A stretch of 2,519 nt of DNA from Escherichia coli (GTDB taxonomy: Bacteria; Pseudomonadota; Gammaproteobacteria; Enterobacterales; Enterobacteriaceae). The position numbers were made by a program, and so were the translations under genes. How positions within the stretch are numbered: the first letter of the stretch is position 1; each line of letters starts with the position of its first letter. The notes under the pieces were generated by a model. The model was not told the origin of the DNA and did not search any database. It saw nothing but the letters and a program-made list of their open reading frames with translations. The stretch lies in NCBI RefSeq assembly GCF_003334355.1, contig NZ_QOWP01000073.1; one strand, given 5' to 3'. Of this stretch, positions 132-2,519 are shown piece by piece.

Positions 132-501
132 CTCGCTTCAGAATTGTATTCGTGTGCGTAATATTGAAACAAAACTCGTCACTGGAAAAGTAGGTACTCA
201 AAACACACAACTGCTTGGTAATACGCTTACTGGAAGCACTGCCGCCAAAGGCGTTGGCGTACTCATTGAAGGTTTAGCAACCAGTAAAAATCCGCTAATG
301 ACATTAAAACCTAATGATACGAATTCTGTTTATATAGATTATGAAACCGAAGATGACACCTCCGATGGGGTTTACCCTAATCAAGGTAACGGCACATCAC
401 AGCCTCTTCATTTCCAGGCAACATTAAAGCAAGACGGGAATATTGCTATCGAACCCGGCGAATTTAAAGCCACCAGTACTTTCCAGGTAACCTATCCCTG
501 A
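132..501 (+). pseudogene. yadC: 3' remnant of a chaperone-usher fimbrial adhesin/subunit gene (yadC-like), truncated at its 5' side by the IS1 insertion
   Basis: Frame-1 translation from 132 gives a ~123-aa Ser/Thr/Gly/Asn-rich polypeptide ending ...TSTFQVTYP, then TGA at 499-501, a typical fimbrial subunit C-terminal beta-strand. It has no native start or signal peptide; the only start-like codon (TTG at 118) lies inside the IS1 inverted repeat. The 113-nt spacing to panB fits the K-12 yadC-panB arrangement as I recall it. Confidence 0.65.
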
Positions 502-505
502 TAAC

Positions 506-540
506 GTAGCAGCACTGTCACCTTCTGGCAGTGCTGCTAC
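506..540. repeat. Perfect 12-bp inverted repeat (stem-loop) just after the yadC-like stop; possible terminator or RNA-stability hairpin without a U-tract
   Basis: GTAGCAGCACTG (506-517) pairs perfectly with CAGTGCTGCTAC (529-540) across an 11-nt loop. It is followed by GGATAAATCA rather than a T-run, so a canonical intrinsic terminator is not supported on either strand. Confidence 0.4.
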
Positions 541-550
541 GGATAAATCA

Positions 551-578
551 TTGCCCCCACCAATGTGACTGATAAAAT
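551..578 (+). promoter_or_regulatory. Candidate sigma70 promoter for panB (-35 TTGCCC, extended -10 TGaTAAAAT)
   Basis: TTGCCC at 551-556, 16-nt spacer, TAAAAT at 573-578 preceded by TG at 570-571, placing a predicted start ~30 nt upstream of the panB ATG. This is motif matching by eye only. Confidence 0.3.
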
Positions 579-614
579 GCCAGACAGCACAACATCAATT
601 TATCAGGATACGTT

Positions 615-1409
615 ATGAAACCGACCACCATCTCCTTACTGCAGAAGTACAAACAGGAAAAAAAACGTTTCGCGACCATCACCGCTTATGACTATAGCTT
701 CGCCAAACTCTTTGCTGATGAAGGGCTTAACGTCATGCTGGTGGGCGATTCGCTGGGCATGACGGTTCAGGGGCACGACTCCACCCTGCCAGTTACCGTT
801 GCCGATATCGCCTACCACACTGCCGCCGTACGTCGCGGCGCACCAAACTGCCTGCTGCTGGCTGACCTGCCGTTTATGGCGTATGCCACGCCGGAACAAG
901 CCTTCGAAAACGCCGCAACGGTTATGCGTGCCGGTGCTAACATGGTCAAAATTGAAGGCGGTGAGTGGCTGGTAGAAACCGTACAAATGCTGACCGAACG
1001 TGCCGTTCCTGTATGTGGTCACTTAGGTTTAACACCACAGTCAGTGAATATTTTCGGTGGCTACAAAGTTCAGGGGCGCGGCGATGAAGCGGGCGATCAA
1101 CTGCTCAGCGATGCATTAGCCTTAGAAGCTGCTGGGGCACAGCTGCTGGTGCTGGAATGCGTGCCGGTTGAACTGGCAAAACGTATTACCGAAGCACTGG
1201 CGATCCCGGTTATTGGCATTGGCGCAGGCAACGTCACTGACGGGCAGATCCTCGTGATGCACGACGCCTTTGGTATTACCGGCGGTCACATTCCTAAATT
1301 CGCTAAAAATTTCCTCGCCGAAACGGGCGACATCCGCGCGGCTGTGCGGCAGTATATGGCTGAAGTGGAGTCCGGCGTTTATCCGGGCGAAGAACACAGT
1401 TTCCATTAA
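615..1409 (+). CDS. panB: 3-methyl-2-oxobutanoate hydroxymethyltransferase (ketopantoate hydroxymethyltransferase), 264 aa
   Basis: ATG at 615 with AGGA (605-608) 6 nt upstream; 264-aa ORF ending TAA 1407-1409. The translation ([55 protein letters not shown]...) matches enterobacterial PanB as I recall it, and the length is right. Confidence 0.96.
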
Positions 1410-1420
1410 GGAGTCACGTT

Positions 1421-2272
1421 GTGTTAATTATCGAAACCCTGCCGCTGCTGCGTCAGCAAATTCGCCGCCTGCGTATGGAAGGCAAGCGCGTGGCGCTGGT
1501 GCCTACCATGGGTAACCTGCACGATGGCCATATGAAGCTGGTCGACGAAGCCAAAGCCCGCGCCGATGTGGTCGTCGTCAGTATTTTCGTTAACCCGATG
1601 CAGTTCGACCGCCCGGAAGATCTGGCTCGTTATCCACGGACCTTGCAGGAGGACTGCGAGAAGCTAAACAAACGTAAAGTGGATTTAGTTTTCGCCCCTT
1701 CGGTAAAAGAGATCTACCCGAACGGTACTGAAACCCACACTTACGTTGACGTTCCTGGCCTTTCGACCATGCTGGAAGGTGCCAGCCGTCCGGGACATTT
1801 TCGCGGCGTTTCGACTATTGTCAGCAAGCTGTTCAACCTGGTCCAGCCGGACATCGCCTGCTTCGGTGAAAAAGATTTTCAGCAACTGGCGCTGATCCGC
1901 AAAATGGTTGCCGATATGGGCTTCGATATTGAGATTGTCGGTGTGCCAATTATGCGCGCCAAAGACGGTCTGGCGCTAAGTTCCCGTAACGGTTATCTGA
2001 CGGCGGAACAACGCAAAATTGCGCCTGGTCTGTACAAAGTTTTAAGTTCGATTGCTGACAAATTGCAGGCTGGGGAACGGGATCTCGATGAAATTATTAC
2101 CATTGCGGGGCAAGAACTGAATGAAAAAGGCTTCCGCGCCGATGATATTCAGATTCGCGATGCCGACACATTGCTGGAAGTTTCTGAAACCAGCAAACGG
2201 GCAGTAATTCTGGTAGCCGCCTGGCTTGGCGATGCTCGCCTGATCGACAACAAAATGGTCGAGCTGGCGTAA
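1421..2272 (+). CDS. panC: Pantothenate synthetase (pantoate--beta-alanine ligase), 283 aa
   Basis: GTG start at 1421 with AAGGAG (1408-1413) overlapping the panB stop; 283-aa ORF ending TAA 2270-2272. The translation contains the HIGH-type nucleotidyltransferase motif ([14 protein letters not shown]) and matches enterobacterial PanC. Lies immediately downstream of panB as in the panBC operon. Confidence 0.96.
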
Positions 2273-2276
2273 TACT

Positions 2277-2314
2277 TAACTGGCGCTACGGCTGATGGCG
2301 CCAGTTATTAATTT
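2277..2314 (+). terminator. Rho-independent terminator downstream of panC (possibly serving both convergent genes)
   Basis: Perfect 10-bp stem TAACTGGCGC (2277-2286) / GCGCCAGTTA (2298-2307) with an 11-nt loop, followed by TTAATTT (2308-2314). It begins 5 nt after the panC stop and lies between panC and the convergent small ORF. Confidence 0.6.
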
Positions 2315-2345
2315 ACCCCACGTCATCTGTCATAACACAGGTAAC

Positions 2346-2501
2346 TTAAATAAGGTTAATTACCTTATCAATCTCAGCAAGAGGTAAATTTGCCATCTCT
2401 GCAACGTCTTCCCGAGACATTCCTTTACTCAGAAGACGCTGGGCGCTGATGAATCCCCTAATGATTTTGGTAAAAATCATTAAGTTAAGGTGGATACACA
2501 T
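2346..2501 (-). CDS. Short convergent ORF (51 aa from ATG at 2501) with a DUF4351-like tail resembling Rpn (YhgA-like) nucleases; candidate rpnC/yadD 3' remnant or stand-alone RpnS-like small protein
   Basis: Minus-strand translation MCIHLNLMIFTKIIRGFISAQRLLSKGMSREDVAEMANLPLAEIDKVINLI with stop TAA (2346-2348). The tail LLSKGMSREDVAEMANLPLAEIDKV fits the recalled 'LLxxGMxxExIAxxTGLSxEEI' pattern of Rpn-family C-terminal domains. In-frame TGA at 2514-2516, and the other two minus frames are also stopped (2480-2482, 2506-2508), so no long ORF continues to the window edge. Absent from the ORF track, presumably for length. Start codon uncertain (ATGs at 2501, 2480, 2420, none with a good SD). Confidence 0.4.
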   Translation of the reverse strand: MCIHLNLMIFTKIIRGFISAQRLLSKGMSREDVAEMANLPLAEIDKVINLI

Positions 2502-2519
2502 CTTGTCATATGATCAAAT

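Follow-up and report, generated by a model that had tools for sequence, protein, structure and literature searches.

The window analysed here, 2,519 nucleotides of Escherichia coli DNA, aligns to E. coli K-12 MG1655 at 100% identity from position 132, where the match begins, to 2445, where it stops. This part carries two intact genes, panB and panC, preceded by the final 122 codons of yadC and followed by the final 32 codons of rpnC (yadD), with the gene order and intergenic hairpins of the yadC-panB-panC-rpnC(yadD) region of MG1655; unlike in that strain, an IS1 interrupts yadC after nt 869 and an IS10 interrupts rpnC after nt 803, with the IS1 ending at 131 and the IS10 end beginning at 2446. 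We read the window as a segment of a K-12-type E. coli chromosome, probably represented by a short assembly contig with repeats at both ends.

The two intact genes lie on the plus strand and agree with the RefSeq annotation: panB (615..1409) codes for 3-methyl-2-oxobutanoate hydroxymethyltransferase, and panC (1421..2272) for pantoate--beta-alanine ligase. Both products are full-length and score over the curated equivalog cut-offs of their families (PanB on TIGR00222, 441 bits against 208; PanC on TIGR00018, 439 bits against 213). A promoter-like site was found by consensus scan at 551-578, upstream of panB, and a terminator-like hairpin with a 12-pair stem lies between the convergent panC and rpnC (2277..2307, plus strand); the terminator scan returned 4 sites in the window against a shuffle mean of 3.4, and this hairpin is a consensus match only.

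To the left of panB, the plus-strand stretch 132..501 encodes codons 291-412 plus the stop codon of YadC, corresponding to the pilin domain of the tip adhesin of the Yad chaperone-usher fimbriae (yadN-ecpD/yadV-htrE-yadMLKC, an H-NS-silenced cryptic operon). The remnant, left by IS1 after nt 869 of 1239, spans positions 291-412 of the 412 in the NCBIfam profile NF007268 ('fimbrial-like adhesin'; E = 7e-75) and matches the Pfam Fimbrial domain (PF00419; E = 2e-8); its 252 bits on NF007268 fall below the cut-off of 382, and it is not the full-length two-domain (lectin + pilin) protein. As its DNA is 100% identical to MG1655 yadC, it is a truncated gene and not another family. It belongs to the same type as the published Yad operon, which is AT-rich, variable and H-NS-repressed (PMC13245861), and differs from an intact one in retaining only these 122 codons of a yadC inactivated by IS1. 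Just 3' of the yadC stop, a perfect 12-bp inverted repeat, GTAGCAGCACTG ... CAGTGCTGCTAC (505..540, plus strand), was read from the sequence and probably forms the hairpin at the end of the yad operon transcript; it is absent from the consensus terminator scan because it has no T run. The same repeat accounts for two weak Rfam 'mir' matches at 498-552, and the Rfam miRNA and snoRNA family matches (E = 0.3-0.8) were rejected as chance.

To the right of panC, the last 32 codons plus stop of rpnC occupy 2346..2445 on the minus strand, 100% identical to MG1655 rpnC and separated from the rest of the gene by IS10 after nt 803 of 903. The intact K-12 gene product scores 298 bits against the 'Rpn family' model TIGR01784 (cut-off 52), and its N-terminal PD-(D/E)XK nuclease domain (TIGR01784 / PF04754) lies outside the window. 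The retained tail is the C-terminus that the intragenic antitoxin RpnC-S has in common with the long nuclease RpnC-L, as known from the biology of RpnS (PMC10400941). Compared with an intact gene for an Rpn (YhgA-like) recombination-promoting nuclease, the window copy is thus split by IS10 and without the nuclease domain.

The IS1 and IS10 ends

The first 131 nucleotides (1..131, plus strand) are the right end of an IS1. They take in the 3' end of the transposase frame as well as the terminal inverted repeat, finish in ...GGAGTCATTACC, and are identical to the annotated 'IS1-like element IS1A' of E. coli BE104 up to the end of the element, beyond which the flanks differ. One end of this IS1 is within the window; a target duplication of 8-9 bp is a feature of IS1, and the candidate duplication is CTCGCTTCA (yadC nt 861-869) or 8 of its 9 bp.

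The opposite end of the window (2446..2519, plus strand), starting CTGATGAATCCCC, is the outside end of an element of the IS4 family (IS10/ISVsa5 type). It gives a 96.7% match beside an 'IS4-like element ISVsa5 family transposase', and both ends of the mini-Tn10 remnant of XL10-Gold, whose flanks differ, carry the identical 74 nt. As in IS10, the terminus CTGATGAATCCCC... is accompanied by RNA-OUT near the outside end and by an adjacent 9-mer like NGCTNAGCN. The 3' part of the antisense RNA-OUT lies at 2491-2519 on the minus strand (Rfam RF00240, model positions 42-70 of 70, 30.7 bits, E = 0.003), scoring under the gathering score only because the window end truncates it. The adjacent 9-mer CGCTGGGCG, the candidate 9-bp target duplication of IS10, matches 5 of the 6 specified positions of the consensus NGCTNAGCN, a level reached by only 18 of 3109 9-mers in the region (top 0.6%), and it also fits the revised IS10 consensus NRCNNNGYN. 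This insertion in rpnC had been overlooked in the initial annotation.

Neither the IS1/yadC nor the rpnC/IS10 junction was found in 5426 complete E. coli genomes and 72,556 plasmids (PLSDB); hence, the insertions are seen in this sequence only, and a plasmid-borne or composite-transposon origin is without support. An XL10-Gold match spanning the rpnC/IS10 query was rejected, as it consists of two non-colinear pieces: in that strain the mini-Tn10 remnant directly follows the panC stop and is joined to yfbM, which is a different event.

The initial annotation further proposed that the AT-rich flanks had attracted the IS1. This is plausible for DNA of about 39-41% GC (0.39-0.415 within 50-100 bp of the site in yadC), and IS1 is reported in older literature to be biased towards AT-rich targets, which would also predict insertions in yadC. 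Insertion tolerance in non-essential genes explains the position equally well: both elements lie in such genes, with panBC and its promoter region intact, and insertions in panB or panC would cost pantothenate prototrophy. The IS10, moreover, lies in locally G+C-rich DNA (GC 0.60 within 10 bp on each side) at a sequence-specific, near-consensus target, and was therefore not drawn by AT-richness. We treat tolerance in dispensable genes, as opposed to attraction by AT-rich DNA, as a serious contender for the positions of both elements, though with a chance somewhat short of even. As for the events themselves, in our reading two insertion sequences have landed, later than the arrival of the accessory genes, in the two dispensable genes, IS1 in the AT-rich yadC and IS10 at a near-consensus 9-mer in rpnC, inactivating both and leaving panBC intact. 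Elsewhere in E. coli, the 17 records listed show same-orientation IS1 copies no more than about 1.8 kb 5' of the yadC tail, with 12 different spacings; by span alone these copies lie in yadC, yadK or yadL, and in BE104, the sole record inspected, the IS1 is inside yadC. This pattern fits tolerance or preference alike.

Base composition of panBC and its flanks

By eye, the regions 132-501 and 2308-2519 had been described as markedly AT-richer than a GC-rich panBC core. At these coordinates the contrast is real, with GC of 0.424 and 0.377 against 0.536 for panB and panC combined; a chi-square on base counts of the flanks versus panBC gives p = 1.3e-4 (left) and 1.8e-5 (right). As such a test overstates significance, it was replaced by an empirical background of K-12 windows of matching length, drawn from 200 kb at four distant places (mean GC 0.514). 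On this background the yadC remnant stands at the 5.6th percentile and 2308-2519 at the 2.7th. The panBC segment stands at the 75th percentile and is therefore genome-typical, so that the 'GC-rich' label of the core does not hold.

The left step is robust across the yad genes. The remnant has GC 0.424, GC3 0.333 and CAI 0.241, against GC 0.546, GC3 0.577 and CAI 0.443 for panB and GC 0.527, GC3 0.581 and CAI 0.378 for panC; all CAI values, which use the weights of Sharp and Li (1987), are approximate. In the full K-12 locus the whole yad operon has GC of 0.404-0.448 and GC3 of 0.337-0.410, and full-length yadC falls in the lowest 1% of 117 K-12 gene-like ORFs for GC, GC3 and CAI. Among the 19 non-yad genes of the 26-kb locus, GC3 is 0.54-0.63 in 14, and 0.50-0.54 in sfsA, gluQRS, folK, yadE and yadI. 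CAI was rejected as a marker of foreign origin, given that the conserved syntenic yadE (0.247) and yadI (0.254) are as low as rpnC (0.237) and yadC (0.218).

The right step, in contrast, is not robust. The segment 2308-2519 is made up of a 38-nt spacer (2308-2345), the 100-nt rpnC tail (2346-2445; GC 0.42) and 74 nt of IS10 (2446-2519; GC 0.311), IS10 being one third of it; the K-12-derived portion, 2308-2445, has a GC of 0.413 and is only at the 7th percentile. Both this portion and the yadC remnant are short, and taken singly neither goes lower than the percentiles given. At third positions, no other 33-codon stretch of rpnC is as AT-rich as the one in the window (GC3 0.333 versus 0.571 elsewhere), and the gene as a whole is ordinary (GC 0.488, 10th percentile; GC3 0.545, 32nd percentile). 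Thus, with rpnC near-native overall, the right GC step is mostly the IS10 end plus an unrepresentative gene tail. Composition as a mark of accessory DNA accordingly serves on the yad side and fails for rpnC, whose accessory status, as it bears essentially no compositional mark, rests on synteny and the literature only. A patch that looks AT-rich by eye can be just such a combination of IS end and atypical tail, and composition alone would have overlooked rpnC as an insertion.

Lineage-restricted additions to the folK-panBCD cluster

The proposal that both flanks are accessory was borne out by gene order in 80 Enterobacterales genomes, with 78 loci counted for folK/panB and 77 for panC/panD: both flanks are lineage-restricted additions to a conserved pcnB-folK-panB-panC-panD-yadE backbone. 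In 63 of the 78, folK lies within 300 bp of panB; a yad-type fimbrial operon of 7.4-9 kb separates them in 8, drawn from Escherichia, Pseudocitrobacter, two Citrobacter and Superficieibacter. On the other side, the distance from panC to panD is at most 350 bp in 72 of the 77 loci, and in the remaining 5 (Escherichia and Pseudocitrobacter only) the gap is 1.2-1.6 kb and always holds rpnC. In every case, the GC of an inserted fimbrial operon is 3-12 points under that of panBC in its own genome. Nearly every E. coli genome carries rpnC (5420 of 5426), and 'accessory' therefore applies to it at the genus or family scale only.

Judged as genomic islands, both additions are restricted to certain lineages at a conserved site (yad-type in 8/78, rpnC in 5/77). 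Their composition differs: it is atypical in the yad operon (GC 0.424, with yadC in the lowest 1%), and unlike that of a classical AT-rich island in rpnC, which is near-native (GC 0.488, GC3 at the 32nd percentile). Between pcnB and yadE, RefSeq annotates neither a tRNA gene nor an integrase at the K-12 and O157 loci. The two additions are better named islets or operon-sized insertions. The panC/panD gap has been described as a twice-used entry point of rpnC (PMC5350276; PMC10400941), and rpn genes as horizontally mobile, combining a toxin with an intragenic antitoxin (PMC10400941).

We consider it highly likely that native panB and panC are flanked here by two lineage-restricted additions to a conserved folK-panBCD cluster, in which IS1 and IS10 subsequently inserted. 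We infer that an AT-rich, H-NS-silenced Yad operon would have entered between folK and panB, to the left of panBC, and a mobile PD-(D/E)XK nuclease/antitoxin gene between panC and panD, to its right; the left GC step would then mark where foreign-type DNA truly meets the native type. The accessory arrangement of yad and rpnC around panBC is already known, and this supported part is not new (PMC5350276, PMC13245861, PMC10400941): it is familiar biology that housekeeping genes have mobile rpn genes and AT-rich fimbrial operons under H-NS silencing inserted beside them as accessory DNA, and the recovery of this here matters little alone.

That the GC contrast arises from function and expression level instead of foreign origin appears improbable. 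The secreted subunits of fimbriae contain much Asn, Thr, Ser and Lys, and genes that are seldom expressed favour AT-ending, low-CAI codons; low CAI is also not specific to the inserted genes, as yadE and yadI show. The GC1 of the yad genes (0.42-0.50 versus about 0.52-0.67 for the rest of the locus) indicates that amino-acid composition contributes, and the contrast is therefore not wholly a foreign-DNA signature. Nevertheless, amino-acid composition cannot explain the fall in GC3 from ~0.58 to ~0.35, the operon is missing from the folK/panB site in 70 of 78 genomes, and a variant operon is 97-98% identical across lineages whose backbone is 91% identical. A third possibility, that the IS1/yadC and rpnC/IS10 joints are artefacts of a chimeric or repeat-collapsed contig, is highly improbable: the sequence does start and stop inside multicopy IS elements, like short-read contigs, and its junctions recur in none of the genomes and plasmids searched, but both joints fall exactly at known element termini, the IS10 joint adjoins one of the region's best consensus targets, and laboratory strains of K-12 commonly carry IS10 (PMC4574204).

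Divergence of folK, panB and panC within E. coli

The 'core' of the initial annotation is itself not inert. The genes folK, panB and panC are strongly diverged within E. coli, with divergence between strains that is unusually high and far above that of genes a few kb off, and this points to an exchange of alleles, on the scale of the operon, at the neighbouring adhesin locus. We found no published description of raised folK/panB/panC diversity at the yad/pan region.

The adhesin gene yadC, too, is fast-varying within the species: its tail has a match of at least 99% identity in 1324 of 5426 E. coli genomes and of 60-80% in 3311, and no match in 667. The yad operon is H-NS-repressed, 70% of E. 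coli have it when judged by usher identity, and its YadC is hypervariable (PMC13245861). At the same site, O157:H7 and Escherichia sp. E1V33 carry a version of the operon that is 27-62% divergent at the amino-acid level. Between these two, the chaperone and usher are 97-98% identical, and the backbone genes pcnB and yadH only about 91%, which, by sequence comparison, points to lateral exchange of the operon. One genome, 'E. coli SCPM-O-B-8794', was rejected as a within-species comparator for YadC, as its pcnB is 91% identical at the nucleotide level, placing it in a cryptic Escherichia lineage.

Core genes beside hypervariable surface-structure loci are diverse, as is gnd next to the O-antigen cluster. 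The present locus resembles this situation in that folK, panB and panC, beside a variable fimbrial operon, are far more diverged than nearby genes. We tentatively suggest, as a joint reading that we regard as possible though unlikely in all its parts together, that the folK-panBCD-yadE region might be a recurrent landing site for chaperone-usher operons in Enterobacteriaceae, with fimbrial operons at three intergenic positions that differ by genus, and that Escherichia might swap whole-operon variants across species via recombination in the flanking housekeeping genes. If this reading holds, folK, panB and panC would constitute a stretch of the E. coli core genome whose high diversity has gone undescribed, comparable to the O-antigen flanks; their divergence is the one thread that deserves the attention of specialists.

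Gene content and base composition

When 5426 complete E. coli genomes were searched by megablast, K-12 MG1655 and numerous further strains matched positions 132-2445 with 100% identity, and RefSeq places in the corresponding K-12 stretch the 3' part of yadC, panB, panC and, on the opposite strand, the 3' part of rpnC. The yadC remnant (132-501) comprises codons 291-412 plus the stop and codes for the pilin domain of the fimbrial tip adhesin; it covers profile positions 291-412 of 412 in NCBIfam NF007268 (E = 7e-75) and also gives a Pfam Fimbrial match. Both panB (615-1409) and panC (1421-2272) are intact, scoring far over their equivalog cut-offs, while the last 32 codons and stop of rpnC occupy 2346-2445 on the minus strand (14215-14314 of the K-12 locus, L001). 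Directly 3' of the yadC stop lies a perfect 12-bp inverted repeat (505-540) without a T run, which probably forms a hairpin that ends or stabilises a transcript and which accounts for weak chance matches to Rfam 'mir' families.

The initial annotation had proposed a GC-rich panBC core bracketed by AT-rich sequence. The GC content is 0.424 in the yadC remnant and 0.377 in 2308-2519 versus 0.536 in panBC; against equal-length windows drawn from 200 kb of K-12 at four distant sites, these values fall at the 5.6th, 2.7th and 75th percentiles, respectively. Hence, panBC is typical rather than GC-rich. The relative AT-richness of the fimbrial remnant is nevertheless upheld, with a GC3 of 0.333 versus 0.58 in panB and panC. 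Throughout the 26-kb K-12 locus all seven yad genes show a GC of 0.40-0.45 and a GC3 of 0.34-0.41, whereas GC3 is 0.54-0.63 in 14 of the 19 other genes and 0.50-0.54 in the rest (sfsA, gluQRS, folK, yadE and yadI). As yadC falls in the lowest 1% of 117 gene-like ORFs of K-12 for GC, GC3 and CAI alike, the left step represents a real compositional boundary.

The right segment is indeed AT-rich, but it is a composite of a 38 nt spacer, 100 nt of the rpnC tail (GC 0.42) and 74 nt of an IS10 end (GC 0.311); its K-12-derived part has a GC of 0.413, at only the 7th percentile of K-12 windows. The whole rpnC gene, in contrast, has a GC of 0.488 and a GC3 of 0.545 (32nd percentile), resembling its conserved neighbors yadE, yadI and yadG. 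The last 33 codons, which are those in the window, form its most AT-rich 33-codon stretch at third positions (GC3 0.333 versus 0.571 in the remainder). Thus, what was taken for an AT-rich flank is an unrepresentative gene tail joined to an insertion sequence end. The CAI of rpnC, an approximate value, is low (0.237), but as the conserved yadE and yadI are equally low, this measure is uninformative regarding its origin. The AT-rich tail coincides with the region common to the intragenic antitoxin RpnC-S, just 3' of KGIE-type repeats.

Accessory status of the flanking genes

A PanB scan of species-representative genomes yielded 80 Enterobacterales loci, onto which the K-12 neighbors were mapped by tblastn. 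These share a conserved backbone, pcnB-folK-panB-panC-panD-yadE-yadI-yadH-yadG-can, and in 63 of 78 loci folK and panB are at most 300 bp apart, with a median distance of 122 bp, as panC and panD are at most 350 bp apart in 72 of 77. A yad-type operon of 7.4-9 kb occupies the folK-panB site in eight of the 78 loci, from Escherichia, Pseudocitrobacter, Citrobacter sp. FP75, C. werkmanii and Superficieibacter. In seven loci, from Serratia, Rahnella and Ewingella, this site instead holds a G+C-rich insert of 2.2-2.5 kb that is unrelated to yad; in these genera (L070-L072, L074, L077, L078, L082, L083) the insert has a GC of 0.56-0.61 and is not a fimbrial operon. All five loci with a wider panC-panD gap carry rpnC and come from Escherichia or Pseudocitrobacter. 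Therefore, both the yad and rpnC flanks are accessory insertions at the scale of the family. Relative to the panBC of the genome that carries it, each inserted fimbrial operon is lower by 3-12 GC points, and the rpnC-bearing panC-panD intervals (1.2-1.6 kb) are lower by 4-7 points; composition backs the accessory status strongly for yad only. Within E. coli rpnC is near-universal, being found in 5420 of 5426 genomes over an identity span of 80-100%.

The supported part of these findings is already known. Two versions of rpnC were reported to have been separately introduced between panC and panD (Kingston et al. 2017, PMC5350276), and rpn genes are horizontally mobile, coding for a toxic nuclease and an intragenic antitoxin with a common C-terminus (Zhong et al. 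2023, PMC10400941). A 2026 study found yad to be repressed by H-NS and YadC to be hypervariable, with a yad prevalence of 70% by usher identity and none in phylogroup E (PMC13245861). The proposed mosaic is partly confirmed and its interpretation partly supported, the biology being ordinary.

Fimbrial operon exchange and divergence of the pan genes

The suggestion of a fast-evolving flank is borne out on the fimbrial side: the yadC tail of the window is present at 99% identity or more in only 1324 of the 5426 E. coli genomes and at 60-80% identity in 3311, with no match in 667. O157:H7 has a collinear fimbrial operon at the folK-panB site (L084 3902-10866) with just 27-62% protein identity to that of K-12. 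In nucleotide sequence, the chaperone gene of the O157:H7 operon is 98% and the usher gene 97% identical to the counterparts in the cryptic-clade Escherichia sp. E1V33 (L007 2925-8738), whose backbone genes are ~91% identical. This disparity is direct evidence of lateral, cross-lineage exchange and indicates that the O157:H7-type operon has moved between Escherichia lineages.

Further chaperone-usher operons of ~7.3 kb, with 43-51% amino acid identity to YadV and HtrE, lie between panD and yadE in nine loci (L010, L012, L018, L019, L023-L025, L028, L030) from Citrobacter youngae, Citrobacter sp. Cu233, C. werkmanii, Enterobacter, Kluyvera ascorbata, Lelliottia and Klebsiella oxytoca. Superficieibacter electus (L016) has another such operon 3' of panD, with yadE unmapped there, and E. 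sichuanensis and E. asburiae (L017, L027) have a chaperone-usher operon between yadE and yadI. From these gene neighborhoods, the pan region appears to be a site at which fimbrial operons have landed repeatedly.

Divergence within E. coli is unusually high for panB, panC and folK, well beyond that of core genes close by: the panBC genes are only 90-95% identical to K-12 in 2387 of 5441 records, and a gcd piece of equal length 7 kb away falls in this band in 17 of 5432; exactly 1324 records reach at least 99% identity for panBC, and exactly as many for the yadC tail. Between K-12 and O157:H7, folK (L001 4353-4832), panB and panC are 86.7%, 92.2% and 95.0% identical, and pcnB, panD and hpt 99.4-100%, with the highest density of mismatches in the 5' part of panB. 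This divergence probably reflects hitchhiking of these housekeeping genes with replacement of the whole adjacent fimbrial operon; we found no published description of the panBC/folK diversity.

Insertion sequence ends

Positions 1-131 are an IS1 right end, identical to the annotated IS1A of strain BE104 up to the terminus, beyond which the flanks differ; the DNA surrounding the site is 39-41% GC. Among the 17 E. coli matches listed, IS1 in the same orientation occurs upstream at 12 different distances from the yadC tail, all within ~1.8 kb. Inspection confirmed an insertion inside yadC in BE104 (L002 2419-3116), one record of the 17, the others being placed in yadC, yadK or yadL by span alone. 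This suggests repeated IS1 insertion in the AT-rich stretch upstream, a distribution compatible with either target preference or tolerance of insertions in dispensable genes.

The K-12 match ends at 2445, where an IS10 outside end (2446-2519) begins; the initial annotation, which named only IS1, missed it. These 74 nt recur unchanged at the two ends of a mini-Tn10 remnant in XL10-Gold, where the neighboring sequences differ, and a close relative adjoins an IS4-family (ISVsa5/IS10-type) transposase gene. Rfam detects the 3' half of RNA-OUT (2491-2519, minus strand), incomplete at the window end. The 300-codon rpnC gene is interrupted by IS10 after codon 267. The adjacent 9-mer, CGCTGGGCG, agrees with the classical target NGCTNAGCN at five of six specified positions, a score reached by only 18 of 3109 9-mers in the region, and is also consistent with the revised consensus quoted in PMC4574204. 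As the DNA at this site is G+C-rich, IS10 was not attracted by AT-richness. The target duplications of IS1 and IS10 fall beyond the window, and neither the IS1/yadC nor the rpnC/IS10 junction was found in the complete E. coli genomes or plasmids searched.

A 51-codon ORF (2346-2501, minus strand) begins with an ATG within the IS10 end and continues into the final 32 codons of rpnC without a change of frame. It runs in the same direction as the outward promoter pOUT of IS10, and could conceivably yield a putative chimeric peptide with the C-terminus of RpnC-S. In XL10-Gold (L003 5001-5311), the two IS10 ends of the mini-Tn10 remnant lie ~310 bp apart, exactly 3' of the panC stop, and through the remnant yfbM is linked to the part of the locus on the side of rpnC. 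Such an arrangement indicates that, in this laboratory strain, a rearrangement associated with Tn10 had a breakpoint in the same panC-rpnC intergenic region.
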